Assembly: GCA_965226555.1 (NCBI GenBank)
Contig: CBDDDG010000002.1
Coordinates: 32,001-96,000, forward strand
Length of the DNA stretch: 64,000 nt
Origin: Salinispira sp.
GTDB lineage: Bacteria > Spirochaetota > Spirochaetia > DSM-27196 > Salinispiraceae
Reading direction: 5' to 3'
Shown: in pieces, positions 4,481-61,566 of the stretch
How the letters are laid out: every line of letters starts with the position of its first letter
Numbering within the stretch: the stretch's first letter is position 1
Position numbers and translations under genes: made by a program
Notes under the pieces: generated by a model
Told to the model about the DNA's origin: nothing
The model's input: only the letters and a program-made list of their open reading frames with translations
Databases searched by the model: none

Positions 4481-5995
4481 CTAAGAAAGACTTCAATTGG
4501 AGGTAATGTATGCAGATTGTAAGCATTAACCAAAAAACAAGAAACCTTTCTACGCCCTCTGTGCTGTGGGGTTTTCTTATCATACTGACAGTGCTCATAG
4601 CGGCCTGCCCAATGCCGGAACCGGAACCAATTACGGAACCGGAGCCCATGGACATGGATACATCGCCCTTAATAGGCGTGTGGACCGCGGATGGTTATAC
4701 CATAGAATTCACCGCCACAACGTACATAGACAAGTTTTCGGGTTTGACCTGTGATTACACGGATAACGGAAACTCAATTACGTTCAGTAATTGTATGGGA
4801 TTAGAAGGAGCGGAAAACCTTAATGGGGCAACGGTAGAGTATACCATTGATGGAGATACCTTAACATTTGATGGCACTGCCTATACCCGGCAGAATTCAG
4901 ATGTACCTGAACCAACCGTGCCGGGCACCATGGCTGCTCCAACCTTTGAAGTGGGGAATAAGCAACTAACGGTTAACTGGACTCCGCCGGAAGAAACCGG
5001 CGATAGTGAAATTACCGCGTACCATGTGCAGCACAAACAAAGCAACGGAGAATGGCCAGCGGACGACACCGCCGCTATTACTCCTCCTACCTCACGCTCC
5101 ACCATCATTACAGGGCTGACAAACGGCAACCCCTACGATGTGCGGCTGCGCGCGGTCAATGCGCAGGGTTCGGGGAACTGGTCGGAATCTTCCACAGAAA
5201 CCCCTATTACCGTTTCCTTGGCGCCGACTGCGTTCATGCTCACAGCGGGAAATACGACAATTACCGCAACATGGGCTGCACCGACCGATACTGGCGACAG
5301 CGCCATTATTCGCTATGAACTGCAACATCGCGAAGTTGGAACAAGCACGTGGGAAGCTACTGTTTCTATTGCTGTGTATGCCAACCACACCTACACCCAC
5401 CTCATCCCCAACCTGACAAACGGCACCGAGTACGAGGTGCGGGTCTACGCTGTCAATACAGAGGGCAATGGCAACCCAGCGACTGGCACCGCAACCCCCG
5501 AAATCCCCGCTACCGTTCCCAGCGCTCCGAATGCTCCTACGCTCACAGCCGGAAACACCGAACTTGAGGTAGCATGGACAGCGCCCGATGATGACGGTGG
5601 CAGCGCCATTACCGGGTACAAAGTGCAACACAGAGTAAACACCGCCAGCGAATGGTTAACGTCCGACACAGCGAACATCGACACTATTACTGATGGTACT
5701 GCTACAAGCTCCACCATTACCGGGCTGACAAACGGCAATAGTTACGATGTACGGGTGCGCGCCGTCAACGCTGTGGGTGATGGCGGCTGGTCGGTATCTG
5801 CCACTCTAACCCTTTCTACTGCTCCCGCCGCTCCAACCGGTCTGACGCTCGTACCAGTGCACCAATCTATTACAGCCGCATGGACAGCGCCGAATAACAA
5901 CGGCGGCAGTGCCATTACCGGGTATGACCTGCAGTTTCGCGTATCCGCAGCAGCTCTGGTAGAGGGCGACTGGCAGACCGAAACTACTACTAATA

Positions 5996-7335
5996 GAAAC
6001 CTTTGAATAACTCCATTATATCTGCCGGTAGTCTTTTTTCCACGCAGAAAAAATTATTCATCGTTTTTCACGTTATTCTCTTCAGCATCCTCCGTCTTTT
6101 TTCGGCGCGATACGCGCTATATTCGTTCTTTTTTTCATCTTTTTTCAGTATTTCCCTCATTTCCGGCAGCAGTACCGCCATAAGGGCACAGCTATCCTGT
6201 TGTTATGCCGCAACCGCAGAGTTTTCCGGCGCCATGTTCCCCATTCGCCGTTTCATGCCGATCATCTGTTTCAGATTATACATAATCGCCATACACATAA
6301 ACCGACTCTGATTCCTCTGAACTCCCATATACCGCGCCTTTCTTGCGCCGCAATGGAGTTTGCTCAGCCCAAAAAACCGCTCCACCGTATTCCTTACGCG
6401 CGACCGCCCGTAATTCGCCTGCTTCTGCTCATCGGTTAACGGTGTGTTCCGATACGCCCGCTCATGTATTTGATTCTCTATGCCCATCTCCTCAAGCATC
6501 GCAGCAATCGCTTTACTCCGGTACGCGGCATCCGCGTACACCACCGTCTCATTTCCCATAATCAATTCGCCAAATAGTTTGCTGTCATGAATATTGGCCG
6601 CAGTCACCAGCAGTTTCTTCGCCCGTCCCTTCTCATTTACCGTCACGTGTATCTTGAAACCGTAGGTTGTTCGTACCGTTCCATCGCCTCCCTTCTTACT
6701 CGCGTAGGCCGCTTCAGGATCCTGTGTCGATTCTCCTGCGTCATTTTTTTTCTTCCGATGCCGCGAAGCCTGTATGACACTCGCATCAATTATGCTGACT
6801 GTGCCCCGGTGCACTTCACAATCCTGCGTGTCCAACTGCGCATTCACCGTGTCCAAGAGCGCACTGAGAATATTCTTACGGGTCAGTTGTTCCCGAAACC
6901 GCCATATCGTGGAATGATCGGGAGTATCATCGAGAACATTGAGCCCCACAAAACGCTTGTATGCCAAGTCGCAGGCAAGCGCATTTTCCATGCCTTCATC
7001 GCTGAGATTCTGCCACGATTGCAGCAACAGCACTTTGAACATCATAACCGGATGATATCCTTTCGCGCCCATCGATTTGTTGTTGATAGCACAGAGCATC
7101 TCCCCAATTTCCTTCCAATTGATCAGTTCATACAGGCTATCGAAGCGTTTCAGCGCTTTACTTTCCTGAATACCCTGATTGATCAGCGATCCATGATGTT
7201 CTTTCCAATTATTTCCCATTGTGTTCTCCTGTTTCAGCGCCGGACAGCGCGCAATACAACCCGATTGCTCATTCCCAGCTCTCTGTGTGAATTTTCTTCA
7301 AAATACCATTATTCCCGATGATGTGCAAAGGTTTC
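5996..7335 (-). mobile_element. IS5-family (IS1106-like) insertion sequence
   Basis: Terminal IRs gaaacctttgaata / tgtgcaaaggtttc; encloses DDE transposase. Confidence 0.9.
6203..7219 (-). CDS. IS5-family DDE transposase
   Basis: PDHSTIWRFR, IIDASVI, YGFKIH, VYADAAY, RNTVERFFG. Confidence 0.95.
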   Translation of the reverse strand: MGNNWKEHHGSLINQGIQESKALKRFDSLYELINWKEIGEMLCAINNKSMGAKGYHPVMMFKVLLLQSWQNLSDEGMENALACDLAYKRFVGLNVLDDTPDHSTIWRFREQLTRKNILSALLDTVNAQLDTQDCEVHRGTVSIIDASVIQASRHRKKKNDAGESTQDPEAAYASKKGGDGTVRTTYGFKIHVTVNEKGRAKKLLVTAANIHDSKLFGELIMGNETVVYADAAYRSKAIAAMLEEMGIENQIHERAYRNTPLTDEQKQANYGRSRVRNTVERFFGLSKLHCGARKARYMGVQRNQSRFMCMAIMYNLKQMIGMKRRMGNMAPENSAVAA

Positions 7336-7829
7336 AAGTAATACAAGCTACCGCATTACGGCATTGAAAGACAGTACCGCGCTGGCAAACGGCACCGCGT
7401 ATAATGTGGAAGTATGGGTTCGCGCACAGAACGCGGCGGGCGATGGCGCGTGGCTGAAATCGACTCCTTCTGCCTCGGTAACTCCTGCTGATGTTGTTCC
7501 CAACAAGCCCGCACCTCCAACACTTACATTAGATAGTACGGGTGGATTTACTATTGCATGGACAGCGCCGACCGACAATGGCGGCAGTGCCATTACCGCG
7601 TATCAACTGCGATTGAGCGTAAATGATGCAGACTGGACTGAAAGTGCTATTTTGAACGTTATCTTGAGCACATATAATGCTTCAAGCAATACTAACTCAG
7701 GCGACACATACGTGATGCAAGTACGTGCCATTAACGCTACGGGTAATAGTGAGTGGTCGGAATCGTCTAATACGCTTACTATTCCATAACTGCACGCTGT
7801 AGACGCCGGCGCGGTACATGAGTGAGCGC

Positions 7830-7908
7830 GCCGGCTGGTCGGAGGCTCGCGCCTCCTGGGCTGGTCGCGCTTCCGCGCTGCTCGCCCGGGCATCCGGCTT
7901 GCCATGCG
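7830..7908. repeat. GC-rich REP-like repeat cluster
   Basis: ggctggtcggaggctcgcgcctcc and ctcgcccgggcatccgg motifs shared with 9505-9700 and other island junctions. Confidence 0.7.
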
Positions 7909-8069
7909 GCTGTTGCTGTGGTGCTGGCAAATTGAATTGAACACAGGAGTTGCAGCGCGAAAACCCGCGTTGCAGCTCCTGTATGTATGCGGGCAGCGCA
8001 AACTGCAAAAATTCTGCAAAATTTTCTCAGTACATCATTCACCATGCGCGCATACCCCGTTTATGTGGT

Positions 8070-8240
8070 ATGAGCGAAAAATATATAGGCATGGTGCACG
8101 ATCAAAGCTGGAAATATGCTTTTGAAAATCCTCAGATATTCCGGGATTTCATCCATTCATACTTCAACAAGGACCTCGCGCGGAGGATTTTCCCCGGGGG
8201 CGTGGAGCGTATCGACACAGAGCATACCAGCCCCCATTCC
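8070..8240 (+). pseudogene. Truncated N-terminus of a further Rpn-like gene, forming part of the cassette leader
   Basis: MSEKYIGMVHDQSWKYAFENPQIFRDFIHSYF resembles Rpn N-terminal HD..F...P..DF motif; recurs degraded before other Rpn copies. Confidence 0.55.
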
Positions 8241-8574
8241 CGACTCCCCGAAAAAAATCACAACATTCTTTCAAAAAACATAGTCAAAAATGACATTTTA
8301 CCCGTCACAGATGTAGGAGGAAAATGTATGAAAAAATCATCCCACAGCACAGGCCACATCCACGACATAGCCTTCAAGATCGCCTACAAAAACCCCCGGA
8401 TGATTCCCGACCTACTGCGGCTGTTCTGTGAGGATACAACGCTTACCAAGCTGGACATGGACAAAATCCGCATTGAAACCCCCAGCTACATTGCAGGAAA
8501 AAAGAACCTTCACTGCGATCTCGTTGTCAGCGCCCCCTTCCTGTCAGACCCCGACCGGAAAGCCCTTTTTATTA

Positions 8575-8701
8575 CTGAAAATTTTGCTCCGCAAAATTTT
8601 CCAATGAGGATTCTCTTATCTATACTCTTGATTCTCTCACGGTATAGAAAGTTTTGCCTTGGAAAATTGTGCAAGCACAATTTCCAGTAGCAAAACTTTC
8701 G
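8575..8701. mobile_element. 127-bp palindromic MITE-like element flanked by TA duplication
   Basis: TA at 8573-8574 and 8702-8703; ends ctgaaaattttgc / gcaaaactttcg; two internal hairpins. Confidence 0.8.
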
Positions 8702-9203
8702 TATTGAACACAAAAGCTACCAGCACAAACATGCGCTCACTCAGATTGATAATTATCAGCATGCCCTCAGAAACAGCAATGTGTATAATGAAAATGATGC
8801 TATCTATATACTTCTGTTCTACCACGGAAAAAAGGAATGGAACCTCCCACGCTCATTTTACAGTTCACATGGAAATCCAACCTCCGAATCCCTTACCGAA
8901 GGCACGGTGGATGTCAAGGTGAAAGTGTCGTACATTGTGCGCGATCTGAGGCGAATGGACAAGAAGCAGTTGGCATTGCGCTCCGATGAAAAACGATATA
9001 CATCGACTGCATTGTGGTATATTATGAGAGATAATGAGATGGACACTGAGGGGCTGAAAGAGATTGCGCAGCTCCTGAACGGTCTGTCATCACAAGACTT
9101 TACTGATCTGGCAGAAAGTGTGTTAGGCTATCTAAAAGATTTGGGACTGTATGAACAGTTTGAGAAAATTAACAGGGAACTGTACCCTGAAGGAGAAAAC
9201 AGT

Positions 9204-9482
9204 ATGCGGACATATAACATGACCAACGCCTTCGTCAGGGAAGGCATTGCGAAGGGCCGGATTGAGGGTCTTGAACAGGGAATGGAGAAAGGTATTCTGA
9301 AAGGCCTTGAGCAAGGACAAGCTGAGAACCAGCGTGAGATTGCATTCAAAATGCTCAGGAAGGGTATGTCGATGGATATTATTCATGAGTTAACCGAGCT
9401 CAGCGAAGATGAAATTCGAGCATTTCAGAAAAACGGCCAGAAAAATGGCAGGGGAAACGGTAGGAAAAACGATAAAGAGTAG
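9204..9482 (+). CDS. Putative internally initiated RpnS-like small protein (92 aa)
   Basis: AAGGAG-N8-ATG in frame within Rpn gene. Confidence 0.6.
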   Translation: MRTYNMTNAFVREGIAKGRIEGLEQGMEKGILKGLEQGQAENQREIAFKMLRKGMSMDIIHELTELSEDEIRAFQKNGQKNGRGNGRKNDKE

Positions 9483-9512: not shown

Positions 9513-9645
9513 GGGCTGGTCGGAGGCTTGCGCCTCCTGCTCGCCATGCGTCCGGGCTGGTCGGAGGCTTGCGCCTCCTGCTCGCCATGCGTCCGGGCTG
9601 GTCGGAGGCTTGCGCCTCCTGCTCGCCATGCGTCCGGGCTGGTCG
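9513..9645. repeat. Tandem 41-bp GC-rich repeat (3 identical units + partial)
   Basis: gggctggtcggaggcttgcgcctcctgctcgccatgcgtcc at 9513, 9554, 9595; internal hairpin GGAGGC-ttgc-GCCTCC. Confidence 0.9.
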
Positions 9646-17623: not shown

Positions 17624-17996
17624 AGTGATTCCTCCCGTATTATATCAGACTAAAGGTTCTTTGTGTACCATGGGGTGGCTTAGTCGGCGCTGCGCGCAGG
17701 CCGAGCGGCGATAATTAATGCGATCCGTTCCGCACTGTCCGCATTTCCTCATCGCTCAGCCCGGTAATCCTCTGAACAGCCTCAGTTGACAAGCCTTCCG
17801 AAAACATACTGCGGGCCGTTTCTCGAATGCCTCTCGCCATTCCCAGCTCAAGACCTTCAACCTTGCCTCTCTCCATTCCTTCCGCAAGACCTTCAACCTT
17901 GCCTCTCTCCATTCCTTCCGCAAGACCTTCAACCCGTCCTTGGTTGACAAACCAATCACTCATCTGAACTTTTTTCATCATAACCCTTTCTCCTCC

Positions 17997-18126
17997 AGAA
18001 ACTTTTGCATTGGAAAATTGTGCAGAGCACAATTTCCAGTAGCAAAAGTTTCACATTTGGATAACTCTATGTGCTTAGCATTCTCGCATTTTGTAGAAAG
18101 TTTTGCCTGTGGCAAAACTTTGTTTC
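17997..18126. mobile_element. 130-bp palindromic element upstream of RpnS start
   Basis: Close to 35616-35745 in sequence and position. Confidence 0.8.
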
Positions 18127-18550
18127 GGGATTAATTTCCCTGTTGATTTTTTCAAAGCGTGTATCCAGTTTCAAGTCTTCATCGCCTGTCTTACTGACTT
18201 TCCGCATAATATAGCACAGGGCTCCCCCTGTCAACACAACCCCATCTGACCCACGGGTAAACTCCTCCTCACTCATCCTATTCACATCGACCATAACAGG
18301 CCTATTGAGAACCTTTGGCCTCGCAAGGTATTTTTTCATCATTGTGTACAATTTTTCCGGTATGTGTGTATGCACATCCCCTGAACTGTAGAAACTGAGA
18401 TCTCCTTCCCATAGTGCTTCGCCATGATACCATAGAACCAGAACAAGAAGGTCGGTCTGCGCCTGAAATGTCCTGCTGTTTATGAGGGCTTTCTGGTATT
18501 TATCGAACTGTTCGCTGACCTTCGGATCAAACATGCTTTTGTGCTCAATA

Positions 18551-18605
18551 CGAAAGTTTTGCTACTGGAAATTGTGCTTGCACAATTTTCCAAGGCAAAA
18601 CTTTG
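18551..18605. mobile_element. 55-bp hairpin module of palindromic element
   Basis: cgaaagttttgc...gcaaaactttg; adjacent TA 18549-18550. Confidence 0.8.
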
Positions 18606-18996
18606 TCTTAAACGCAATATCATGGATATTGTATCCGGCATTACTCATACATACCTCCTGTTATATCTATAACGGGTAAACTGTCATTTTTAACTATGTT
18701 TTTTGAGAAAATTTGAAAGAATTTTGCAAAATGTGTGAATTTTTTTCAGGGAGACAGGAATGGGGGGCTGATGTGCTCTGAGTCGATGCGCTCTATGCTC
18801 CCGTGGACAATGTTCAGCGCGAGGTCTTTGTTGAAGTATGAATGGATGAAGTCCCGGAATATCTGAGGATTTTCGAAGGCATATTTCCAGCGTGTACCAT
18901 ATCGATATATTTTTCGCTCATACCATATAGACGGGTTACATATGAACGGTGAATATGAGAAATTTTTGTAATTATTTTTATTATTTTGAGATATTA

Positions 18997-19093
18997 CAAA
19001 GTTTTGCATTGAAAATTGTGCTTGCACAATTTCCAGGAGCAAAACTTTCTATGAAATAGGAGAATGCTAAGCACAAAGACAGCATTCCAAATG
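18997..19093. mobile_element. Palindromic element copy within Rpn leader
   Basis: Hairpin + spacer module; absent from equivalent leader at 34520-34560. Confidence 0.75.
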
Positions 19094-19210
19094 GGATATT
19101 AGCCTGATCCTGCCGCATGGCGAGCCGGGCGACATGAGGGCAAGAGCGAGCAGCCCCGCGCCTGCCTGAGTTGACTTGCCATTTTTCAATAACTACTGCG
19201 GGTTATGAAA

Positions 19211-20929
19211 CTACTCTACAAACCATGACGGAATCAGATCACCTGTTACGCCGGAACCTGCGAACATATTTGTTTTGATTCCGGTATATGTGCCATTGTT
19301 CCAGTTAGCATTGTTCCAGTAAACCGCAGGATCAACCGAGTTATTCCATGCCCACTTCTCAAGATCTTGATTGAATGCGCTTGCGTTCTGGAACATCGTT
19401 CTCATACTCGTTACATTACTGACATCCCAGCCGGAGATATCGCCATTGAATGAGCTTGCGTTCTGGAACACAAATCGCATATCCGTTACCGAACTGACAT
19501 CCCAACCCGAAATATCGCCATTGAATGCGCTTGAAAAAGCGAACATAGTGCTCATAGTCATTACCTTACTGACATCCCAACCGGAAATGTTGCCATTGAA
19601 TGCGGATGCAAATACGAACATCCCCGCCATATCCTCTACCGAACTGACATCCCAGCGTGAAATATCGCCATTGAATGCGCTTGCAGCATCGAACATCCGA
19701 TGCATAATCGTTACCGCGCCAGTATCCCAGAGTGAGATATCGCCATTGAATGCGGTTGCGTCCTTGAACACATTGGACATAATCGTTACTGCCGAGGTAA
19801 TAATGTAGTTGAGATCGGCAGTATTGCCCCAAGCTGTTATTCCCGCAGTTACCGCGGCGTCCAGTGCAGCGTTATCAGCAGGACTCACGGTAACGTAAAA
19901 ATACTCGGCAAACAGTATGTCTGTGCCTCCAGATTCAGTGCCATATACCAGATATGTTCCGGCTGTTGTACCCGCAGCAACCGTAACAACTCCGGTACTC
20001 GCACTAACTGCCGGAATGGTAACCCCATCGGGTGCAGTTGCGGAGGTTACCGTAATGACTCCTGATCCACTAACAGCGAGAGTGTCCGGTTGCACCGTGG
20101 TCAATGAAACGGTTGGGATCTGAGCAGCAATAATGGTCATAGCGGCAGCCGAAAGGTTTACCGTCGCTGCCGTACCCGCGGGAGTCTGTTTCGATGAAAT
20201 TATCACCAGCGTTGCCGTTGCTGGTGTAGACCAGCCGCCATTGCCCACAGCGTTAACAGCGCGCACCCGTACTTGGTAGGATGTACCGTTTGTCAGCCCG
20301 GTAATGGTGTAGCTCGTGGTACCGTCATTAATAGTGGCGATGTTATCTGTATCAGCCGTTGACCATGTGCCGGAGGCGCTTGTTCTGTGCCACACATGGT
20401 ACCCGGTAATTGCGCTGCCGCCGTTATCGGTTGGCGCAGTCCATGTGGCAATGAGCAACCCATTCCCCACTTCAAGGGTTGGAGCAGCCATGGTACCCGG
20501 CGCGGCAGGGGGCGCAGTTGACGGTGCAATAGGTGTTGCCGTGGAAGATGCCGACCAGCCGCCAGTGCCGATAGCGTTGACAGCGCGTACCTGCACGGCA
20601 TAGCTGACGCCGTTTGTCAGCTCGGTAATGGTATGGCTTGTGCCGATAATACCGGAGTTAATCCCGTCCCAGATCTCGCTGTCGACTTGTCGATAGCGCA
20701 GGTCATACGAGGTAATATCGTTGTCCGTGTTGTTCTCCTTCCACCCCCAATTCCATGTCGTAGGATCAACCCATGATGCGGTAAGTTGTCCGTTCCCTGC
20801 TTCGAGAGTTGGAACAAATATGGCAGGCGGCACTGTTATCATTGAACATCCCGAAATCAATGCAATAAAAATTGAGCAGAAAATGAAAAGGGCTACCCCC
20901 CCCCCCCAACTGTATGACGTAATTTTCAT
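19211..20929 (-). CDS. FN3 (x2) + DUF285/BspA-like repeat (x6) surface lipoprotein; G12 tract in frame
   Basis: Lipobox LISGC; 25-aa [15 protein letters not shown] repeats. Confidence 0.9.
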
Positions 20930-26110: not shown

Positions 26111-26211
26111 TGTTTCCCTCCTTTTATGGTTTTCATTAACCCCCAGTGTATACGAATAACCTTCGTTTTACACTGGGGAGGAGGGGTCTGTCCAAAGGTT
26201 TATTTCCCAAT

Positions 26212-34417: not shown

Positions 34418-34460
34418 TTTCATAGCCCGCAGGAGCTATTGAAACGCTGCAATTCAACTC

Positions 34461-46600: not shown

Positions 46601-46603
46601 GCG

Positions 46604-48283
46604 ATGCATCATAATTGCCCCTTTTTTCACGATGAATCTCTTATGCCCGAAGACCTCAGAACGGCACTGGAGGAAGAACTGGAGCTTTTTTTTCTGGGAA
46701 AACGGGGAAGCGCTGGAGAATTGCAACACAACAGGCTGCCGGAAACATATCGCGGAAACAACGAACCGTATTGCGGCAGCAGCGCAGAACAGACGCCATC
46801 GCTTCCATTATCCCGAAACCGCGCCCTGAAAATGATGATCAGCAACATCAGTACACTGGCAGGCTCCGTGCGCCGCTGCACGGAAGGAAACATGGATGTG
46901 AGCAGGCGCATCGCTCACGATCTGGTTCAGCGTGTCGGTAATCTCTTCAACGATTCCAACGAGATACATGCTCTGCAGGCCTTGGAAGGTCTCCGTAAAA
47001 AAATGAGCAGCCGATCTCCTGTGCAATGCTATCATCTGACAAAGAGCATGGGTATAAGCGATTCCGATGGAGACATTATTTTCAGCATGCTTGAGGATGC
47101 CGCCGCTTCCGTTGATATCGCCGACACCGAGGATGCTGCCGCCCCCGACATCTCCCCAATATCAGCAAGACCTCCAACATCAGCAACATCAGCGCACATC
47201 CAACGGCAGTCCCTAGAGCATGCCATGGAACAAAACATCAGCCGCAATCTCAGCGCCTACGAGGCTGGGCTGTATCGATCCATAATACGGAGCAATCTCC
47301 CGCCAATTATCATTGAACTTCTGGAAAATGCCGCTCTGTTGAGTAAGGTTTCGGAAAACATGGAACATTACTTCGGCATAAACTCAGCAGGGTGGGATTA
47401 CACGCGAGGCGAGTGGCAGGAAATTCCCTGGGAAATTTTCAATGCCGGCAGGCAACTACTGGAAAATGATCCATCCATCATGCGTCTTGCTGAAATCCTC
47501 GGAAGGGGGAGCGGCGCAGGGCGGGCAGATACTGTCGAAATGCCCGATCAGAAAGAAACCGAACACATACATGAACAGGAATATCTCGGTAAGCGGGAAA
47601 TACTGGGAATTAATTTCGGGAACGATATTAACATTACCCTCCCGTCGCAATTCATGTTTTTTTTCGACTCAGATACCGAATACCGTTTCTACAAGGAACT
47701 CTTGGAAGGTCAACTTCTCGTTCTTCATTATCGGAATATGGAAACCCGGGAAAAGATCATATATAGGCCGAAAAAACAGAAAAAAACTCTCGGCCCCGTG
47801 ATCATTTGTCTCGATACAAGCGGCAGCATGAGCGGTTGGCCGGAAAGTGTCGCAAAGGCTCTCTGCCTTGCTCTCGTACATATCTGCAGGCGCATGCGGC
47901 GGGGGCTTTATCTTATTTTGTTTTCCACCGAGGTTCGGGAAATGGATTTGAGTAATATGGAAGAGAGTATTGGTGAATTTTCCCAATTCTTTCGCATGGA
48001 ATTTCGGGGCGGCACCGATCTCAGGCCGGCACTCAGGGCATCGTTACGGGTAATGCGGGAAAAAGATTTTGTTGATAGCGATCTTCTTATTATTTCCGAT
48101 TTTCGTGTTCCCAAGATCATGCTGGGAGATGATATTGTGTTTTCTGGAATTCGGGAACACAACCGCATCCACGCCCTTACCATAGGAAAACAGCCGATGG
48201 AAGATATTTTCAATATTTTTGACAGCTGCTGGCATTATCTCGTCTCGGCACAGGGACAGGCCATCGGCATGGGCGGAATTTAA
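46604..48283 (+). CDS. ViaA-like VWA-domain protein
   Basis: GPVIICLDTSGSMSG, GGTD, ISDF; follows RavA-like gene. Confidence 0.88.
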   Translation: MHHNCPFFHDESLMPEDLRTALEEELELFFLGKRGSAGELQHNRLPETYRGNNEPYCGSSAEQTPSLPLSRNRALKMMISNISTLAGSVRRCTEGNMDVSRRIAHDLVQRVGNLFNDSNEIHALQALEGLRKKMSSRSPVQCYHLTKSMGISDSDGDIIFSMLEDAAASVDIADTEDAAAPDISPISARPPTSATSAHIQRQSLEHAMEQNISRNLSAYEAGLYRSIIRSNLPPIIIELLENAALLSKVSENMEHYFGINSAGWDYTRGEWQEIPWEIFNAGRQLLENDPSIMRLAEILGRGSGAGRADTVEMPDQKETEHIHEQEYLGKREILGINFGNDINITLPSQFMFFFDSDTEYRFYKELLEGQLLVLHYRNMETREKIIYRPKKQKKTLGPVIICLDTSGSMSGWPESVAKALCLALVHICRRMRRGLYLILFSTEVREMDLSNMEESIGEFSQFFRMEFRGGTDLRPALRASLRVMREKDFVDSDLLIISDFRVPKIMLGDDIVFSGIREHNRIHALTIGKQPMEDIFNIFDSCWHYLVSAQGQAIGMGGI

Positions 48284-48317: not shown

Positions 48318-49406
48318 TTAGTGCGATCCGTTCCGCACTGTCCGCATTTCCTCATCGCTCAGCCCGGTAACATCCTGAATGTCATGGGCTGAAAATCCTT
48401 TGGAAAACATACTGCGGGCGTTTTTTCTCCGCTCCTCAATATGCCCCTCAGCGCGACCTGCCTGTAGCCCCTTCTGTAGCCCCTTCTGAAGTCCTTCTTC
48501 ACGACCTGTCTGCAATCCTGTCTGAAGTCCTTCTTCACGACCTGTCTGCAATCCTTCCTGCCGACCTGTCTGAAGTCCTTCCTGCCGACCCATTTCCGCA
48601 ATGCGCGCTTTGAATGTTTCCGCATTCATTCTGAACATTTTTGCTACCTCCTTACCTCTCGGTTCTTTTGTTCTTTCTAACTGGTTCATTAGCGTGTCAA
48701 AGTCTATAACAATTCCGAACATCGAATCTATCACGCCGATAAATTCCTCTATCAGCTCCAGCGATTCCTCATTCAGCATTTCTGCTATCGCTTTCTCCAC
48801 CTTCCGAATGTCCCAATCCGTATTCAGCAGATTTTTCGAGTACAGATCAAGGTACATAACAGCCGCAAACATTCTTCCCCGCTGCTGCAGCTGCTCCGCA
48901 GAATAATCGCTCTCGTTAATAAGATCGTAAGGAAAGGGAGCAAGATACTGCGGGAATTCCCGCGTGTTCCGCTCTCTGACATTCCCGGGCACCTTCCATT
49001 TTCTCGTACCATTATAGAACACAATGGGCAGAAATACCAATTCACAGTCATCGGGAATTGCTCCAGAGCGGTGAATGTTCCGATAGAGCAGATTCGTATA
49101 TTCCGACATGCGGAGGGGCATGTCTTTGTCCACTCCAGACTGATGCTCAAGGAGCACATAGATAGCAACATCTCCCGTGTGATCCTTCTGCGTTATTTTG
49201 CAGACAATGTCGGCCATCCGTGTTTTCGCATGGTCAATGAAAAAGGTACCGTTTTCGATGGTTATATCCTCGATTCGGAGTTTTTTCGTCCATGCGCCTC
49301 CGACAAAGCGTTGAAGAAATTGGAGCATTATTGCGGGTTGGAACAGCAGGGAGCGGTATCCTTGGTCGTAGGGAACGGGGGCGGGTTTTTCTTTGAAATC
49401 GATCAT
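48318..49406 (-). CDS. Rpn type B (intact, 362 aa); internal RpnS start 48638
   Basis: Near-identical N-terminal 256 aa to 36614 copy. Confidence 0.9.
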   Translation of the reverse strand: MIDFKEKPAPVPYDQGYRSLLFQPAIMLQFLQRFVGGAWTKKLRIEDITIENGTFFIDHAKTRMADIVCKITQKDHTGDVAIYVLLEHQSGVDKDMPLRMSEYTNLLYRNIHRSGAIPDDCELVFLPIVFYNGTRKWKVPGNVRERNTREFPQYLAPFPYDLINESDYSAEQLQQRGRMFAAVMYLDLYSKNLLNTDWDIRKVEKAIAEMLNEESLELIEEFIGVIDSMFGIVIDFDTLMNQLERTKEPRGKEVAKMFRMNAETFKARIAEMGRQEGLQTGRQEGLQTGREEGLQTGLQTGREEGLQKGLQKGLQAGRAEGHIEERRKNARSMFSKGFSAHDIQDVTGLSDEEMRTVRNGSH

Positions 49407-49420
49407 ACAATCCTCCTGAA

Positions 49421-49475
49421 CGAAAGTTTTGCTACTGGAAATTGTGCTTGCACAATTTTCCAATGCAAAAGTTTC
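49421..49475. mobile_element. 55-bp hairpin element just upstream of Rpn RBS
   Basis: Absent from 36614, 39876 and 59757 leaders; same site at 58118-58172. Confidence 0.8.
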
Positions 49476-50044
49476 TGAACGTTTTTTTCTGAATAGGGGA
49501 GTTCCCATGGCGACATGGTCCCATGGTGAATTCTCCCTTATATATCTATAACGGGAGAAAAGTCATTTTTAACTATGTTTTTGAAAAGAATTTGAAAAAA
49601 GTTTGCAAAATGTGTGAATTTTTTTCAGGGAGTCGGGAATGGGGGCTGGTATGCTCTGTGTTGATGCTCTCCATGCTCCGCGCGAGGTCTTTGTTGAAGT
49701 ATGAATATATGAAGTTCCAGAATATCTGAGCATTCCTGAAAGCATATTTCCAACTTTTGTCATGTACCATATCGATATAATCTTTCCCCATACTATATAG
49801 ATGGGGTAAATATGAACGGTGAATGATACAATGAGAAATTTTTTCAAAAAGTTTCTATTATTTTGGGATATTGACCTGAGCCCATCGTCTCAGTAACAGG
49901 CGCATAGGCGAGCTATCGAAAAAAGGCAGGCACGGGGCTGCTCGGCGCTCCGCGCCTGCTCGCCCAAGCATCCGGGGAAAAATCCGCGCCTGCCTGAGTT
50001 GAATTGCCGCTTTTCATTAGCCACTGGGGGCTATGAAACTACTC

Positions 50045-52329
50045 CTAATACCATGATGGATAATTTGGTTGATCCCCACTATCGTCATTACTAGCCGGAT
50101 TCGCATCCAAACCGGAATCCAAAAACGTATCTGCTTTGCTTCCGGTGTATTGGCCAGCGGCATTGAGCGTCCCGGCAGCAGTCGACCAATGATCCTTCCA
50201 CTCCTCAAGATTTTGACTGAATGCACTTGCAGAATAGAACATAGAGCCCATATTCGTTACCTTACTGACATTCCATCCGGAAATATCGCCATTGAATGCG
50301 ATTGCTCCATTGAACATCCCCAACGTACTAATTACCGAACTGACAACCCAGCCGGAAATATCGCCATTGAATGCGATTGCTCCATTGAACAGGAAGTCCA
50401 TATTCGTTACCTTACTAACATCCCATCTGGAGAGATCCTGATTGAATACAGTTACTCTATCGAACATATTGCTCATATTCGTTACCGAACTGACAACCCA
50501 TCCGGAAATATCGCCATTGAATACATATGCTTGAGAGAACATCCCCGACATAATCGTTACCGAACTGACATCCCATATCGAGATGTCGCCATTGAAATAG
50601 TATTTTAGCGCGAACACCTCGTCCATATCCGTTACTGCCGTGGTAATAATGTAGTTGAGATCGGCAGTATTGCCCCAGGTTGATATCCCCGTATTTACCT
50701 TCAATTTCAGATCGGCAAGAATTTCTGCGGCATCACTACCAGCATCATCGGCATACTTATTATCTTCATCTTGAGGCCTCACGGTAACATAAAACTTTTT
50801 GGTAACCCGTGTATTCTCATCGGTTCCGTCTATGACAGATACATTGTATGTTCCTGCCGTTGTCGTTGCGGTAACCGTAATAACTCCGGTACTTGAGTCA
50901 ACTGTCGGAGGGGTAACCGATGTCCCTGAAGTAACCCCAGCCACAGTAACGCTTGGATTCTCCGCATTGGCAGCGGCGTCATCAATATCAGCCGAAAGAA
51001 TGACGGATGTTGTTGATGTACCAAAGGGAACCCGTGCCGCAAGCGGCAGCAATGTTCTCGTTGCGGATAATGACCAGTCGCCATCGCCCACCGCGTTGAC
51101 GGCGCGCACCTGCACATCGTAGGTGGTACCGTTTGTCAAGCTCGGGATGGTGTAGCTCGTACCACTGATAGGGTTGCCCGGGGCCGCCGTCCAAGTACTT
51201 CCGCTGTCTGAACTATACTGCACATCATACCCGGTAATGGGGCTGCCGCCGTTGTTGGGCGCTGTCCATGACGCGGTGATCTGGGCGTTTCCGGCTGTGA
51301 GCGTGGGAGCATTCGGCGCGCTGGGAACGGTAGCGGGGGTTGCGGTGCTAGTCGCTGGGTTGCCATTGCCCTCTGTATTGACAGCGTAGACCCGCACCTC
51401 GTACTCGGTGCCGTTTGTCAGGTTGGGGATGGGGTGGGTGTAGGTGTGGTTGGGGTCGGCATTCACAGCAATAGAAACAGGATTTCCCCACTCGCCTGCT
51501 CCAACTTCGTGATGTTGCAGTTCATAGCGAATAATAGCGCTGTTGCCAGTATCGGTCGGCGCTGTCCATGTTGCTGTAATTGTCGTATCGTCCGCTACGA
51601 GCGTAAACGCAGTCGGCGCCAAGGAAACGGTAATAGGGGTTGCTTCTGCGCTCGATTCCGACCATTCGCCTGCGCCCGCGCTGTTCCGTGCGCGCGCCTG
51701 TACGGTGTACGCGGTGCCGTTTGTCAGGCCAGTGATGATGGTCTCTGTGGCTGGCGCGTCGGCTGTAGTAATGTCCTCCGACCAGCTGCTCCCGCCGTCA
51801 TCGCTATGGCGAAGTTCATACGCGGTAATGTCGCTGCCGCCGCTTTTTTCCGGCGGAGTCCAGTTAACCGTTAGTTGAGCATTCCCCGCTTCAAGGCTTG
51901 GGGCGTCCATGGTGCCCGGCACGGTTGGTTCAGGTACATCTGAATTCTGCCGGGTATAGGCAGTGCCATCCAATGTTAAGGTATCTCCATCAATGGTATA
52001 CCCTACCGTTGCCCCATTACGGTTTTCCGCTCCTTCGACTCCCATACAATTACTGAGCGTAATTGAGTTTCCGTTATCCGTGTAATCACAGGTCAAACCC
52101 GAAACACGGTCTATGAACGTTGTCGCGGTGAATTCTATGGTATGAAACTCATTATCCGCGGTCCACACGCCTATTAGGGGAGATGTATCCATGTCCATGG
52201 GCACTGGTTCCGGTTTCGGCATTGGTTCCGGTTCCGGCATTGGACATCCGACAAGCAGCGCAATGAACATTGCACATAGGAGGAAGAGGGTTACCCCCCC
52301 CCCCCACTTTTCAATAACGTAGTTCGCAT
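50045..52329 (-). pseudogene. FN3 (x3) + DUF285 (x6) surface lipoprotein, out of frame at G12 tract (candidate phase-OFF)
   Basis: GAGGT-ATG 52329: MRTTLLKS-GGGG-TAA; G13 or G10 joins to ORF 52270-50045 with lipobox LVGC. Confidence 0.8.
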
Positions 52330-52358: not shown

Positions 52359-52578
52359 AAAACCTTTGAATAACTCCATTATATCTGCCGGCAGTCTTTT
52401 TTCCACGCAGAAAAAATTATTCATCAATTCCTAGTATTCAGCATACATCATTTTTCCACCCTTTGCATACTCAAAACCCTAAAATTCATTCTTTTTTTCA
52501 TCTTTTTTCAGTATTCCCCTCATTTCCGGCAGCAGTACCGCGGGCACAGCTATCCTGTTGTTATGCCGCAACCGCAGA
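52359..52578 (-). mobile_element. Truncated end of the IS5-family element
   Basis: Matches 5997-6220 including IR and last transposase codons. Confidence 0.85.
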
Positions 52579-52602
52579 CAAAACTCTGTCATATTATGAA
52601 AT

Positions 52603-52710
52603 AACTTTGCATTGGAAAATTGCGCTTGCGCAATTTCCAGTAGCAAAACTTTAGTGTATATTCTTATTAGAAACTTTTGCTGCTGAAAATTGTGCTTTGC
52701 ACAATTTTCC
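52603..52710. mobile_element. Two hairpin modules of palindromic element upstream of lpoB
   Basis: ggaaaattgcgc-tt-gcgcaatttcc and gaaaattgtgc-ttt-gcacaattttc. Confidence 0.75.
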
Positions 52711-54822: not shown

Positions 54823-54909
54823 ATGGGAGGGGACTATGTGAAAGGTCGGCAGGAAGGACTGCGGACAGGCCGTGAAGAAGGCATTCAAGGAGCTGCCCGC
54901 AGTAATTGA
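54823..54909 (+). pseudogene. Orphan RpnS-like fragment (28 aa)
   Basis: MGGDYVKGRQEGLRTGREEGIQGAARSN matches Rpn C-terminal repeats. Confidence 0.65.
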
Positions 54910-56905: not shown

Positions 56906-58102
56906 TTAATGCGATCCGTTCCGCAATGTCCGCATTTCCTCATCGCTCAGCCCGGTAATTCTCTGAACAGCCTCGGTCGACAAGCCTTCCAAAAACATAC
57001 TGCGGGCGTTTTTTCTCCGTTCCTCAATATGCCCCTCCGCGCGGCCTTCCTGTCGACCTGTTCGCAGTCCTGTCTGAAGTCCTTCTTCACGACCTGTTCG
57101 CAGTCCTTCCTGCCGACCTGTCTGCAATCCTTCTTCACGACCTGTTTGCAGTCCTTCCTGTCGACCTGTCTGCAATCCTGTCTGAAGTCCTTCTTCACGA
57201 CCTGTCTGTAATCCTGTCTGAAGTCCTTCCTGCCGACCTGCCTGTAGCCCCTTCTGAAGTCCTTCTTCACGTCCTTCCTGCCGACCCATTTCCGCAATGC
57301 GCGCTTTGAATGTTTCCGCATTCATTCTGAACATTTTTGCTACCTCCTTACCTCTCGGTTCTTTTGTTCTTTCTAACTGGTTCATTAGCGTGTCAAAGTC
57401 TATAACAATTCCGAACATCGAATCTATCACGCCGATAAATTCCTCTATCAGCTCCAGCGATTCCTCATTCAGCATTTCTGCTATCGCTTTCTCTACTATC
57501 TGAATGTCCCAATCCGTATTCAGCAGATTTTTCGAGTACAGATCAAGGTACATAACAGCCGCAAACATTCTTCCCCGCTGCTGCAACTGCTCCGCAGAAT
57601 AATCGTTCTCACTTATCAGATCGTAGGGAAAGGGGGCAAGATACTGCGGGAATTCCCGCGTGTTCCGCTCTCTGACATTCCCCGGCACCTTCCATTTTCG
57701 CGTACCATTATAGAACACAATGGGCAGAAATACCAATTCGCAGTCATCGGGAATTGCACCGGAGCGGTGAATGTTCCGATAGAGAAGGTTTGTGTACTCT
57801 GACATGCGGAGGGGCATGTCTTTGTCCACTCCAGACTGATGCTCAAGGAGCACATAGATAGCAACATCTCCCGTATGATCCCGACTTCTGATTTTGCAGA
57901 CGATGTCGGCCATTCGTGTTTTCGCATGGTCAATGAAAAAGGTACCGTTTTCGATGGTTATATCCTCGATTCGCAATTTTTTCGTCCATGCGCCTCCGAC
58001 AAAGCGTTGAAGAAATTGGAGCATTATTGCGGGTTGGAACAGCAGGGAGCGGTAGCCTTGGTCGTAGGGAACGGGGGCGGGTTTTTCTTTGAAATCGATC
58101 AT
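56906..58102 (-). CDS. Rpn type B (intact, 398 aa); internal RpnS start 57334
   Basis: As other type B copies; longest repeat tract. Confidence 0.9.
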   Translation of the reverse strand: MIDFKEKPAPVPYDQGYRSLLFQPAIMLQFLQRFVGGAWTKKLRIEDITIENGTFFIDHAKTRMADIVCKIRSRDHTGDVAIYVLLEHQSGVDKDMPLRMSEYTNLLYRNIHRSGAIPDDCELVFLPIVFYNGTRKWKVPGNVRERNTREFPQYLAPFPYDLISENDYSAEQLQQRGRMFAAVMYLDLYSKNLLNTDWDIQIVEKAIAEMLNEESLELIEEFIGVIDSMFGIVIDFDTLMNQLERTKEPRGKEVAKMFRMNAETFKARIAEMGRQEGREEGLQKGLQAGRQEGLQTGLQTGREEGLQTGLQTGRQEGLQTGREEGLQTGRQEGLRTGREEGLQTGLRTGRQEGRAEGHIEERRKNARSMFLEGLSTEAVQRITGLSDEEMRTLRNGSH

Positions 58103-58584: not shown

Positions 58585-59757
58585 TTAATGCGATCCGTTC
58601 CGCAATGCCCGCATTTCCTCATCGCTCAGCCCGGTAATTCTCTGAACAGCCTCGGTCGACAACCCTTCCAAAAACATACTGCGGGCCGTTTCTCGAATGC
58701 CTTCCTGCCGACCTGTCTGCAGTCCTTCCTGCCGACCTGTTCGCAGTCCTTCCTGCCGACCTGTCTGTAGTCCTTCCTGCCGACCTGTTCGCAGTCCTGT
58801 CTGAAGTCCTTCCTGCCGACCTGTCCGCAGTCCTTCCTGCCGACCTGTCTGAAGTCCTGTCTGAAGTCCTTCCTGCAATCCTTCTTCACGACCTTCCTGT
58901 CGACCTGTTTGCAATCCTGTCTGAAGTCCTTCCTGCCGACCCATCTCCGCAATGTGAGCTCTGAATGTTTCCGCATTCATTCTGAACATTTTCGCTACCT
59001 CCTTACCTCTCGGTTCTTTTGTTCTTTGTAATTGGTTCATTAGCGTGTCAAAGTCTATAACAATTCCGAACATCGAATCTACCACGCCGATAAATTCCTT
59101 TATCAGCTCCAGCGATTCCTCATTCAGCATTTCTGCTATCGCTTTCTCTACTATCCGAATGTCCCAATCCGTATTCAGCAGATTTTTCGAGTACAGATCA
59201 AGGTACATAACAGCCGCAAACATTCTTCCCCGCTGCTGCAACTGCTCCGCAGAATAATCGCTCTCGTTAATAAGATCGTAAGGAAAGGGAGCAAGATACT
59301 GCGGGAATTCCCGCTTCCGTTGCTCTCTGACGTTCCCGGGCACCTTCCATTTTCGCGTTCCATTATAGAACACAATGGGCAGAAATATCAATTCGCAGTC
59401 ATCGGGAATTGCGCCGGAGCGGTGAATGTTCCGATAGAGCAGATTCGTATATTCTGACATGCGGAGGGGCATGTCTTTGTCCACTCCAGACTGATGCTCA
59501 AGGAGCACATAGATAGCAACATCTCCCGTATGATCCCGACTTCTGATTTTGCAGACGATGTCGGCCATTCGTGTTTTCGCATGGTCAATGAAAAAGGTAC
59601 CGTTTTTGATGGTTATATCCTCGATTCGCAATTTTTTCGTCCATGCGCCTCCGACAAAGCGTTGCAGAAATTGGAGCATTATTGCGGGTTGGAACAGCAG
59701 AGAGCGGTAGCCTTGGTCGTAGGGAACGGGGGCGGGTTTTTCTTTGAAATCGATCAT
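58585..59757 (-). CDS. Rpn type B (intact, 390 aa); internal RpnS start 58989
   Basis: As other type B copies. Confidence 0.9.
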   Translation of the reverse strand: MIDFKEKPAPVPYDQGYRSLLFQPAIMLQFLQRFVGGAWTKKLRIEDITIKNGTFFIDHAKTRMADIVCKIRSRDHTGDVAIYVLLEHQSGVDKDMPLRMSEYTNLLYRNIHRSGAIPDDCELIFLPIVFYNGTRKWKVPGNVREQRKREFPQYLAPFPYDLINESDYSAEQLQQRGRMFAAVMYLDLYSKNLLNTDWDIRIVEKAIAEMLNEESLELIKEFIGVVDSMFGIVIDFDTLMNQLQRTKEPRGKEVAKMFRMNAETFRAHIAEMGRQEGLQTGLQTGRQEGREEGLQEGLQTGLQTGRQEGLRTGRQEGLQTGLRTGRQEGLQTGRQEGLRTGRQEGLQTGRQEGIRETARSMFLEGLSTEAVQRITGLSDEEMRALRNGSH

Positions 59758-60009
59758 ACAATCCTCCTGAAGGTTTTTTTGAACGTTTCTTTCTGAATAG
59801 GGGAGCTCCCATGGCGACATGGTCCCATGGTGAATTCTCTCCTCTATAATCTGTGACGGGTAAACGGTCATTTTTGACTATGTTTTTTGAGAAAATTTGA
59901 AAAAAGTTTGCATTTTGTAAAACTTTGTGGTATTATTCAGTAACCGCAGAAATAATGGCGGACGCCGTCAGATTTTTTCTGAGGAAAAATTACCTTGGAG
60001 GTAACATAT

Positions 60010-61566
60010 ATGAAAATTATGTCATACAGAGGAATAACTCTTTTCACTTTCTGTGCAATGGTTATTGTGTTGATGGCGGGGTGTCCGATGCTAACCGCGC
60101 CGCCTGCCATGTATTCTCCAACTCTCACAGCGGGAAGCGAACAGCTTACCGCATTGTGGGTTGATCCGACTACATGGAATTGGGGGGAAAACAACGCAGG
60201 AAACGCCATTACCGCGTACAACCTGCGCTATGGTGAAGTCGGTAGCGAGGGCTGGACGGAGATTATCTCCGGTATTACCGGCGCAAGCCACACCATTACC
60301 GACCTGACAAACGGCGTCAATTATGCTGTGCAGGTACGCGCCGTCAACGCGCAGGGCACCGGCGGCTGGTCGGCATCTGCCACGGCAACACCTATTGCGC
60401 CAACTGCGCCCCCTGCCCCGCCGGGTACCATGGCTGCCCCAACCCTTTATGCGGGAACTGGGCGGCTCGTTGCGACATGGACTGCGCCAATCGATAACGG
60501 CAGCAGCCCCATTACCGGGTATGAATTGCAATATCGCACAGGCGGCGGAGCATGGACACAAATTACCGAAGGCATCACCGGTACAGACCACAGCATTACG
60601 GGACTGACAAACGGCTCCCCCTACCAAGTACAGGTGAGCGCCGTCAATGCGGTTGGCGATGGCCCATGGTCTCCATTTACAATAGGAAGGCCGCAAAGGA
60701 CACAGACTCCTGTGGGTACGGCAAGGGTTGTAAGCCTTTCAGATGCCGTTAATGTTATTATTGCCAGTGAGAACCTCAGCATTTATTTGACCACGGTAGA
60801 GTCTGGCACGTACGCGGTCGATGAATCGGGAAACATTACGGTAACCCCCGCAACGACGCCCGATGGGGTCACCATTCCGACAGTTAATGCGAATACTGGA
60901 ATTGTTACGGTTACCGCAGGTACAACGGCAGGAACATATCTGGTATATGGTGAAACAGAAAGCGGCGACAAACTCTTTGCCGAATATTTCTATGTTACCG
61001 TGCGTCCTCACGATGGCGATGGTACTGGTGTTACTGATAATGATGGTGATGGCGGTAACGATGAACTGGACGCCGCGGTAGCTACGGGGATAACCACTTG
61101 GGGACAAACTGCCGACCTCAACTACATTGTTACCGCGGCAGTAACGGATATGTCCTTGATGTTCAATAACAACAGCGTATTCAATGGCGATATCTCCGGT
61201 TGGGATGTCAGCTCGGTAACGAATATCTCCGCAATCTTCAGTTTCACAGACGCATTCAATGGCGATATCTCTGCTTGGGATGTCAGTTCGGTAATGAATA
61301 TGTCCCAGGCTTTCCAGCAAGCAAGAGCATTTAATCGTGATATCTCAGCTTGGGAGCCTGCCGCGGTAACGAATATGAACAGGATGTTCAAGGACACAGG
61401 CACATTCAATCAAGATCTTGAGGAATGGAAGGATCATTTGACACTTGATGCCAATGGCAAATTTACCGGAAACAAAACAAATATGTTTAGGGATTCCGGT
61501 TTAGATTCGAATCCGAATACTAATGATGATAGTGGGCCTCAACCGAATTATCCGTCATGGTATTAG
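60010..61566 (+). CDS. FN3 (x2) + DUF285 (x4) surface lipoprotein, no poly-G tract
   Basis: GGAGGT RBS; lipobox MAGC; N-terminus similar to 20929 gene. Confidence 0.9.
   Translation: MKIMSYRGITLFTFCAMVIVLMAGCPMLTAPPAMYSPTLTAGSEQLTALWVDPTTWNWGENNAGNAITAYNLRYGEVGSEGWTEIISGITGASHTITDLTNGVNYAVQVRAVNAQGTGGWSASATATPIAPTAPPAPPGTMAAPTLYAGTGRLVATWTAPIDNGSSPITGYELQYRTGGGAWTQITEGITGTDHSITGLTNGSPYQVQVSAVNAVGDGPWSPFTIGRPQRTQTPVGTARVVSLSDAVNVIIASENLSIYLTTVESGTYAVDESGNITVTPATTPDGVTIPTVNANTGIVTVTAGTTAGTYLVYGETESGDKLFAEYFYVTVRPHDGDGTGVTDNDGDGGNDELDAAVATGITTWGQTADLNYIVTAAVTDMSLMFNNNSVFNGDISGWDVSSVTNISAIFSFTDAFNGDISAWDVSSVMNMSQAFQQARAFNRDISAWEPAAVTNMNRMFKDTGTFNQDLEEWKDHLTLDANGKFTGNKTNMFRDSGLDSNPNTNDDSGPQPNYPSWY

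Follow-up and report, generated by a model that had tools for sequence, protein, structure and literature searches.

A shared linker couples Rpn nuclease genes to genes for predicted surface lipoproteins in a Salinispira genome

The 64,000-nucleotide stretch of Salinispira DNA studied here (positions 32001-96000 of contig C2; hereafter the window) contains five islands in which a gene for a predicted surface lipoprotein lies beside one or more genes of the Rpn nuclease family. Across the genome this coupling of lipoprotein and Rpn genes is real, it is oriented, and it is carried by an inherited linker. On balance, we favour a reading in which the two kinds of gene sit together because of this one common linker, at which host recombination swaps, adds and drops Rpn cassettes. 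The parts are known individually; their combination is a new variant. The original prediction, made from the window alone, had described the five islands, and all of them were recovered with the coordinates and orientations given below and with matches to FN3/DUF285 and PF04754.

Results

Coupling of the two families

The genome measures 2.98 Mb in 26 contigs (93.5% complete, contamination estimate 6.67%) and is the sole member of its genus among the 31 relatives searched. A self-trained gene caller gave 2470 genes, Rpn and lipoprotein units were defined by tblastn, and the background set comprised 1774 genes bounding 1800 gaps; read checks drew on short-read contigs only, and no RNA data are listed. 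The 195 Rpn units divide into subfamilies B (80), A (50), E (18), C (17), D (13), F (1) and G (1) and 15 units that consist of the C-terminus only, and 77 copies are intact. Lipoprotein units of the FN3/PARCEL type number 136, with the PARCEL repeat (TIGR02167, equivalent to DUF285) in 108. Read depth, when summed, came to 8-11 for unique bins and to ~800-870 for RpnA, as many genuine copies would give, but it is no copy number. Because the two families fill 14.6% of the genome, the process that couples them shapes the cell surface of this lineage.

Lipoprotein units fall in 113 of the 1800 gaps, Rpn units in 118 and both in 69. Random relocation of the Rpn-bearing gaps gave means of 9, 17, 24, 31 and 44 shared gaps as the pool shrank from 1441 to 303 long or occupied gaps, and the maximum in 10,000 draws was 59. 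The adjacency noticed in the window thus beats a permutation null genome-wide and, as the permutations on long or occupied gaps indicate, does not reduce to both families accumulating in long gaps. The 88 adjacent pairs in shared gaps comprise 70 that run lipoprotein-then-Rpn on one strand, 10 divergent, 7 reversed and 1 convergent; pairs of the first kind came to 23 (maximum 38) when order and strand were shuffled and to 40 (maximum 55) when order only was shuffled. Within 1.2 kb of an Rpn unit lie 61 of the 108 PARCEL lipoproteins, 14 of 44 lipoproteins of a second family (labelled GYD, a name coined in this analysis), 18 of 78 insertion sequence (IS) genes, 2 of 17 ankyrin genes and 186 of 1774 background genes.

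The coupling is not absolute. About 40% of occupied gaps hold just one family, and the claim that the two genes always go together does not survive at genome scale: Rpn is missing from 44 of 113 lipoprotein gaps, a lipoprotein from 49 of 118 Rpn gaps, and 51 of the 108 PARCEL lipoproteins have no Rpn downstream. Even the window holds two lone remnants of eroded islands, a fragment of an FN3-lipoprotein gene adjoining an IS481-like end (26210-26335, minus strand) and an RpnS-repeat fragment fused to the 5' region of an IS (54839-54904, plus strand).

Both expansions are lineage-specific. DUF285 was found in 0 of 4 family relatives (with 2 matches in genome G006), and PF04754 has 0-4 matches in those four. 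First-look counts, which are candidates and not copy numbers, put this genome highest of 401 spirochaete genomes for DUF285 (218, next 81) and highest among the matches listed for the same 401 for TIGR01784 (236, next 71). Coupling was not seen in two other spirochaetes with both families: the nearest pair in genome G209 (6 PARCEL clusters, 33 Rpn matches) is ~7.5 kb apart, and genome G014 has no Rpn near PARCEL. A hint of pairing in a second assembly comes from a lipoprotein (P0076) and an RpnA (P0135, 82% identical) of an ENA assembly, each on a 10,436-base contig. Searches of the open-access literature returned nothing on a linkage of Rpn with PARCEL/BspA; the bioRxiv supplements, which include an rpn array figure, were outside their scope.

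The linker

The linker, which sequence comparison finds homologous across loci, starts behind the lipoprotein stop with a conserved motif. Next come a terminator-like hairpin and its T run (folding z -3.1), GC repeats in a variable mosaic, and AT-rich DNA; the RpnE part, ~52 codons from its 5' end, is followed by a C-rich tract and then by the ribosome site of the Rpn gene. Motif mapping confirmed the proposed order of stop, terminator, GC repeat, AT-rich leader and Rpn. The leader that had been called shared is indeed shared, and consists for the most part of the RpnE promoter region together with ~52 codons from the start of that gene. Five linker motifs were scored (first motif, second motif, terminator, GC repeat and leader, in that order). 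They follow 44, 52, 34, 52 and 39 of 57 Rpn-followed lipoproteins and 17, 2, 0, 15 and 6 of 1649 background genes; after the 51 solo lipoproteins they number 25, 17, 6, 8 and 2, as nested, 3'-truncated pieces. An intact RpnE is present at C1:27824-28759, and RpnE may well be the older partner, because it survives as 52 5' stubs and 16 longer copies that are 46-76% diverged.

Among the 144 near-complete Rpn units, GC repeats lie on both sides of 40, upstream only of 33 and downstream only of 23, and the repeats 3' of Rpn stops keep the same orientation, that is, they are direct repeats. Intergenic GC-repeat clusters number 212: 136 stand behind a lipoprotein or Rpn gene of the same strand, and 84 precede an Rpn on the same strand and 8 one on the opposite strand. 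The last ~50 bp of coding DNA are likewise common to subfamilies A (43/48), B (50/69) and D (9/12). Divergent lipoprotein-Rpn junctions are partly shared by descent in nine of the ten examples examined.

A C-rich tract lies 5' of 89 of 192 Rpn units, compared with 74 of 1758 background genes. This tract (window 49625-49646 and its equivalents) marks the cut of the RpnE stub, several shortened cassettes start there, and on the opposite strand it is G-quadruplex-like in 32 leaders. Since it is partly derived from IS30/IS481-like ends and shared by descent, a G-quadruplex trigger is kept only as a lead. The GYD family (C16:11386-12774 and 43 paralogues) is a second expanded lipoprotein family, with GYD-rich repeats and an SMP-30/LRE-like C-terminal domain; RpnC follows its genes five times, via a separate short junction.

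Exchange of partners

The original prediction proposed a dispersing or diversifying unit. Oriented coupling, shared flanking DNA, occasional copying of whole pairs and heavy recombination bear out this part of it; the discrete unit with defined ends did not hold up. No common boundary motif was found, and the distance at which homology gives out is scattered for each of the four edge types. Fixed co-inheritance of lipoprotein and Rpn also failed: among the 39 of 70 pairs long enough for comparison, the similarity of the lipoproteins is uncorrelated with that of their Rpn partners (Mantel r 0.00, n 16; r 0.08, n 23). The correlation of the lipoprotein 3' end with Rpn (r 0.15 and 0.09) is not significant, that of the linker with Rpn reaches r 0.24 in B (p 0.045) and r 0.17 in A, and the nearest neighbour of a linker predicts the Rpn subfamily in 32 of 39 cases. 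Close lipoprotein pairs share an Rpn subfamily in 3 of 11 cases (67 junctions), with 31% expected.

Whole-pair copying does happen, since two pairs are near-duplicated at separate loci across lipoprotein, linker and Rpn. On the lipoprotein tree (69 of 101), the presence of a downstream Rpn changes 15 times as against 23.3 when shuffled, and at least 10 of the changes are forced by supported branches. There are 59 tandem Rpn neighbours; after removal of 8 C-terminus-only cases, 23 of 51 differ in subfamily. Local duplication also acts, because tandem RpnB copies are closer to one another than dispersed ones (0.943 versus 0.918).

Recombination among Rpn copies

The Rpn copies are fine-scale recombinant mosaics. 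Median identity is 94% for RpnA (40 copies) and 92% for RpnB (61 copies), with a synonymous excess among polymorphic sites (80/126 in A, 86/174 in B). Over distances of 10 to 100+ bp, r-squared between common variants falls from 0.32 to 0.026 in A and from 0.18 to 0.023 in B. Clonal simulations (30 per subfamily) gave a flat r-squared of 0.08-0.12 that was never below 0.037 at long range, and one third as many common variants. In the lipoprotein, GYD and leader sets, saturation precludes a comparison of linkage decay. Unitigs from short reads bore out unique flanks and two stretches of lipoprotein sequence, but no complete Rpn copy.

A hairpin element interrupts RpnB at five fixed sites (14, 6, 17, 5 and 14 of 66 copies) and RpnA at two (4 and 9 of 49 copies), each site with its own version of the sequence. 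For the four scorable RpnB sites, all four combinations occur in six of six site pairs, and therefore recombination or precise excision is needed. Hairpin inserts are present in 63 of 101 broken Rpn units and in 3 of 77 intact ones. The element is an AT-rich miniature inverted-repeat transposable element (MITE), seen in the window at 8576-8704, 35002-35130, 35617-35747, 49422-49476 and 52610-52650 (folding z -4.5 to -9.1) and represented genome-wide by ~560 core palindromes; its sites in Rpn include one just 5' of the catalytic motif and one at the RpnS ribosome site.

Both recA and mutS are present, and loss of mismatch repair was rejected on the presence of mutS (mutL was not searched). PF01797, the Y1 HUH transposase family, has no match in this incomplete assembly, and a REP/RAYT or IS200/IS605 reading was rejected for want of such a transposase. 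The three tyrosine recombinase matches (XerC-like, XerD-like and a fragment of 125 amino acids (aa)) lie far below the TIGR02249 cut-off in this 93.5% complete genome; no integron integrase having been found, an integron cassette array was rejected as well.

Properties of the encoded proteins

All Rpn subfamilies pass PF04754, the intact B, C, D and E representatives with 35-61 bits against a cut-off of 21. Residues D11, D63, E82 and Y98 (E. coli RpnA numbering) are invariant in all five subfamily representatives; Q84/R94 are retained in A, C and E and read K/Q in B and D. The E-x-Q/K-S motif occurs in 76 of 77 intact copies, and an internal ribosome site with ATG can be read from the sequence of 75 of 77. 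The C-terminal proteins measure 70-142 aa, mostly in 4-residue steps, and RpnS variants of the same length are numerous in trans. These genes are predicted to be RpnL/RpnS toxin-antitoxin pairs.

The PARCEL lipoproteins carry tandem DUF285/TIGR02167 repeats and a lipobox-like Cys, and they are predicted surface proteins, many of them putatively phase-variable by poly-G slippage. Of the 69 out of 108 that are classifiable, 27 have a run of G7 or more in the signal region; 20 of these 27 are out of frame as against 4 of 42 without such a run, a difference to which homopolymer assembly error may contribute. Genome-wide, 40 of 79 G/C runs of 8 or more lie in or beside lipoprotein genes. Lipoproteins followed by Rpn share more exact 30-mers with their paralogues (0.68, n 54) than solo ones (0.48, n 38; p 5e-5), and the sharing is alike beside intact and broken Rpn (0.685 versus 0.715, p 0.56). 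Because of this last equality, younger copies or longer homology fit better than an effect of the nuclease in cis.

Discussion

We propose, with modest confidence, that the pattern described above is explained most economically by host recombination acting at shared flanks. The ancestor would have been a lipoprotein-RpnE pair, copies of which, with variable ends, dispersed across loci. Younger RpnA, B, C and D cassettes would then have replaced RpnE by gene conversion between the shared flanks or, alternatively, by pop-out and pop-in at the GC repeats, a route that could also build the mixed tandem arrays. Deletions, some of them at IS ends, together with the hairpin MITE would erode the islands.

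Several points weigh against this proposal. It leaves the first dispersal, to more than 100 loci, unexplained. GC repeats are missing from both sides of 48 of the 144 near-complete Rpn units, as is the common 3' end from RpnC and RpnE, and the GC repeats, being short and variable, would probably be poor substrates for RecA alone. The higher 30-mer sharing of Rpn-followed lipoproteins is what younger copies would give, but a role of Rpn would account for it too. The data come from a single genome with heuristic gene calls and the contamination estimate of 6.67%, and assembly polishing could add mosaicism at the level of single-nucleotide polymorphisms. No pair of empty and filled sites and no circle was seen, and the collections searched hold no close relative genome. 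In five relatives glnA and glnE, which flank the fifth island, are 4.5-8 kb apart or reordered, with no Rpn or lipoprotein match between them; these genomes are too distant to define ends. Finally, no joint across island 4 was among the 15 of 233 joints listed for study P2.

A metagenome scan with lipoprotein LpoB gave no match above 58% identity, an RpnA scan of genome contigs gave one match at 33%, the linker DNA gave a short match only, in one of seven family genomes, and a viral scan with one lipoprotein gave one match, PARCEL-only. Contigs of study P2 stop matching right after the vWA gene stop beside island 4 (228 loose letters) and again just before 52643 (560 loose letters), a hint that the population may differ there. 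Joints in reads that go back on themselves, obtained from contigs only, can just as well be put down to tandem arrays elsewhere in the genome.

It is conceivable, if doubtful, that Rpn cassettes are selfish nucleases that colonised the 3' linker of a 100-member family of phase-variable lipoproteins, and that their putative nicking drives ectopic recombination, their own spread, the reshuffling of the lipoproteins and the rewriting of the RpnL/RpnS specificity repeats. If this were true, Rpn would drive both its own dispersal and antigenic variation without being a transposase. Rather unlikely, in our estimation, is the version in which low-level RpnL nicking primes template switching, copying lipoprotein-linker-Rpn segments with ragged ends to new loci and driving a conversion that diversifies both families, with Rpn as a trans-acting selfish diversifier. 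E. coli RpnA generates 3'-OH ends and stimulates recombination that is independent of RecA, according to the available part of PMC5350276, and the genome at hand has 77 intact copies with conserved catalytic residues, the top first-look counts (Rpn 236 versus the next listed 71, DUF285 218 versus 81, in 401 spirochaete genomes), ragged ends, very short linkage and the synonymous excess noted in A (80/126) and B (86/174); Rpn-linked lipoproteins also share more exact sequence. In the sole test in cis, however, sharing was equal beside intact and broken Rpn (p 0.56), broken Rpn are copied as well as intact ones, RpnA has little sequence specificity (same part of PMC5350276), and the Rpn-rich G209 shows no coupling.

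Dispersal by IS30- and IS481-like elements, which would have inserted near promoters, moved or trimmed adjacent DNA and left single ends behind, is decidedly unlikely. Orphan IS ends are found at 12 of 22 Rpn 5' edges and 19 of 69 lipoprotein 5' edges as against 33 of 387 background gaps. An IS30 left end, pointing into the island, precedes 26 Rpn units, and two more cases are Rpn units enclosed by IS30 ends in inverted orientation. Yet ~14 of the 26 have one flank in common and are therefore a single event, IS ends are not enriched at 3' edges (9/72, 3/20), the two IS30-flanked Rpn units show no target duplication, and IS genes lie near Rpn in just 18 of 78 cases. Nor would IS dispersal explain the fixed order of lipoprotein and Rpn. 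Genome-wide there are ~100 single IS30-like and ~47 IS481-like ends, many adjoining promoter -35 boxes, and they far outnumber intact elements.

We regard addiction, which the original prediction had offered as a role for Rpn, as highly unlikely. A toxic RpnL with an unstable RpnS would prevent loss of the neighbouring lipoprotein gene, and the internal ribosome site and ATG (75/77) with 4-residue steps do match the RpnL/RpnS design, as far as it is set out in the available text of bioRxiv 10.1101/2023.05.02.539157. Addiction is nonetheless unsupported because intact Rpn are not enriched beside lipoproteins (30 of 69 directly after a lipoprotein versus 25 of 62 in lipoprotein-free gaps); 51 of 108 PARCEL lipoproteins have no downstream Rpn at all, and many RpnS variants of equal length are available in trans. 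A rigid mobile element made of lipoprotein and Rpn, with Rpn as its transposase, seems to us most unlikely. The two near-duplicate pairs at separate loci and the somewhat clustered Rpn-downstream status on the lipoprotein tree (15 versus 23.3 changes) speak for it; against it stand the lack of fixed ends or a common boundary motif, the absence of co-phylogeny and the at least 10 forced label changes, and published rpn genes have no inverted repeats, target duplications or autonomous transposition in the portion of bioRxiv 10.1101/2023.05.02.539157 at hand. Hardly credible is a mere piling up of both families in whichever gaps tolerate them. The genome is IS-rich, the two expansions are lineage-specific, and overlap would be expected if just ~190 gaps were usable, but the order and strand bias beyond the within-island shuffles refutes it, and the homologous linker and the controls (ankyrin 2/17 and background 186/1774 versus 61/108 for PARCEL lipoproteins) also speak against it.

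The likeness of our genes to known systems is judged from the parts of the cited texts that were available. The Rpn genes resemble the RpnL/RpnS nucleases (YhgA-like, PF04754/TIGR01784; PMC5350276; bioRxiv 10.1101/2023.05.02.539157) in domain, catalytic residues, internal start and 4-residue repeats, and like published rpn genes they show no inverted repeats or target duplications and have variable ends and tandem arrays. Unlike the published sets, they number ~195 units (77 intact) against 26 in a high example from that part of the same preprint, their arrays often mix subfamilies, and they have a fixed place behind a surface-lipoprotein family; the words lipoprotein and adhesin occur 0 times in the preprint's main text. 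The lipoproteins are like the PARCEL lipoproteins of PMC2996958 in their 25-residue repeats, patchy distribution, intragenomic shuffling and association with mobile DNA, and differ from those in the available part of that paper in being fused to FN3 arrays, in their poly-G phase tracts, in their more than 100 dispersed copies and in their tie to Rpn; its main text contains neither the word nuclease nor the word fibronectin.

The linker recalls two other arrangements. As in the junction unit of the Staphylococcus aureus lpl genes (PMC2568036), which are also lipoprotein genes, a 3' end, an intergenic region and the next 5' end are conserved and recombination shuffles the rest; the lpl genes, so far as the available text describes them, are tandem paralogues at one locus with congruent 3' and 5' phylogenies, whereas here two unrelated families meet at ~70 dispersed loci with little congruence. 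In a possible likeness to unconventional circularisable structures (PMC7843796), a cassette without a recombinase of its own can lie between direct repeats and could pop out and in; the repeats in the accessible part of that account are long and the circles were shown by PCR, whereas ours are short and mosaic and flank both ends of 40 of 144 units, with no circle seen.

How rpn genes spread without being transposases is called open in the available parts of the Rpn literature (PMC5350276; bioRxiv 10.1101/2023.05.02.539157), and recombination at the linker offers a possible handle on it. With the largest Rpn set among 401 sampled spirochaetes, a docking linker, inherited indel markers and ~70 independent junctions, this genome makes homologous exchange versus Rpn-primed template switching testable.

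Features of the window

The ten Rpn copies of the window comprise four intact ones, all RpnA, and six broken ones: four RpnB and one RpnD broken by hairpin inserts and one RpnA by IS30. The flanks of the islands are in general unrelated housekeeping genes, as predicted, the exception being island 3, which has a restriction-modification pair on one side. A lipoprotein is likewise present in every island, with the reservations that the first is FN3-only and split and that the fourth is out of frame.

Island 1 (plus strand) opens with this FN3-only lipoprotein (4510-7789; Pfam fn3 on 4510-6006 and 7364-7789, no PARCEL), which is split by an IS5-family element on the minus strand (5994-7335, ORF 6203-7219; NF033581 above cut-off) with 99% identical copies elsewhere. 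Its linker (7832-8327) has GC repeats and, from ~8070, an RpnE 5' stub with 81% identity to residues 1-52 of RpnE; a C-rich tract and the ribosome site of the next gene complete it. The RpnB that follows (8328-9482) is broken by a 129-bp hairpin insert (8576-8704) just 5' of the catalytic E-H-K-S motif, and a tandem array of a 41-bp GC repeat (9513-9645; Tandem Repeats Finder, 3.2 copies, 100%) lies 3' of its stop. Island 2 (minus strand) has an FN3 + PARCEL lipoprotein with an in-frame G12 tract at 20896-20907 (19211-20929), a linker with a hairpin insert, GC repeat and RpnE stub (18649-19210), and an RpnD remnant (17715-18648) with an internal deletion and two hairpin inserts, in which the C-terminal (RpnS-type) frame is retained.

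Island 3 (plus strand) is the longest array. Directly to its left lies the type II restriction-modification pair (30221-31874; EcoO109I-like endonuclease and N4/N6 methylase) and directly to its right a tRNA (43724-43796), the only Rfam match at gathering scores. Its FN3 + PARCEL lipoprotein (32078-34417) has apparently lost the usual ribosome site and ATG at an IS5-end scar, and the linker (34418-34751) retains the conserved 3' motif, terminator hairpin with T run (z -3.1), GC motif and leader. There follow an RpnB broken by hairpin inserts at 35002-35130 and 35617-35747 (34752-36084), a spacer of GC repeats and leader with RpnE stub between tandem Rpn genes (36085-36613), an intact RpnA (36614-37714; PF04754) with internal ribosome site and ATG, 12-bp repeats and D11, D63, E82, Q84 and R94 of E. 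coli RpnA conserved, an RpnB broken by three hairpin inserts (37944-39391), an RpnA (39876-42030) split by IS30 (~40537-41649; ORF 40544-41428, minus strand) and a last RpnB broken by two hairpin inserts (42264-43563).

In island 4 (minus strand) the frame of the FN3 + PARCEL lipoprotein (50045-52329) is broken at a G12 tract (52294-52305), which leaves the ATG at 52329 out of frame. The linker (49407-50044) is complete, with 3' motif, terminator, GC repeat, RpnE stub, C-rich tract and a 55-bp hairpin insert (49422-49476), and leads to an intact RpnA (48318-49406). The island is flanked by a pair of genes for a MoxR-type AAA ATPase and a vWA protein (45023-48283), and an internally deleted IS5 copy (52361-52590) lies 5' of the lipoprotein. 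Island 5 is divergent: an intact RpnA with a shortened leader on the minus strand (58585-59757; TIGR01784 52.2 bits against a cut-off of 52.1), followed downstream by a second intact RpnA (56906-58102, minus strand), faces away from an FN3 + PARCEL lipoprotein on the plus strand (60010-61566), whose 3' linker is reduced to its first ~15 bp before glnE.

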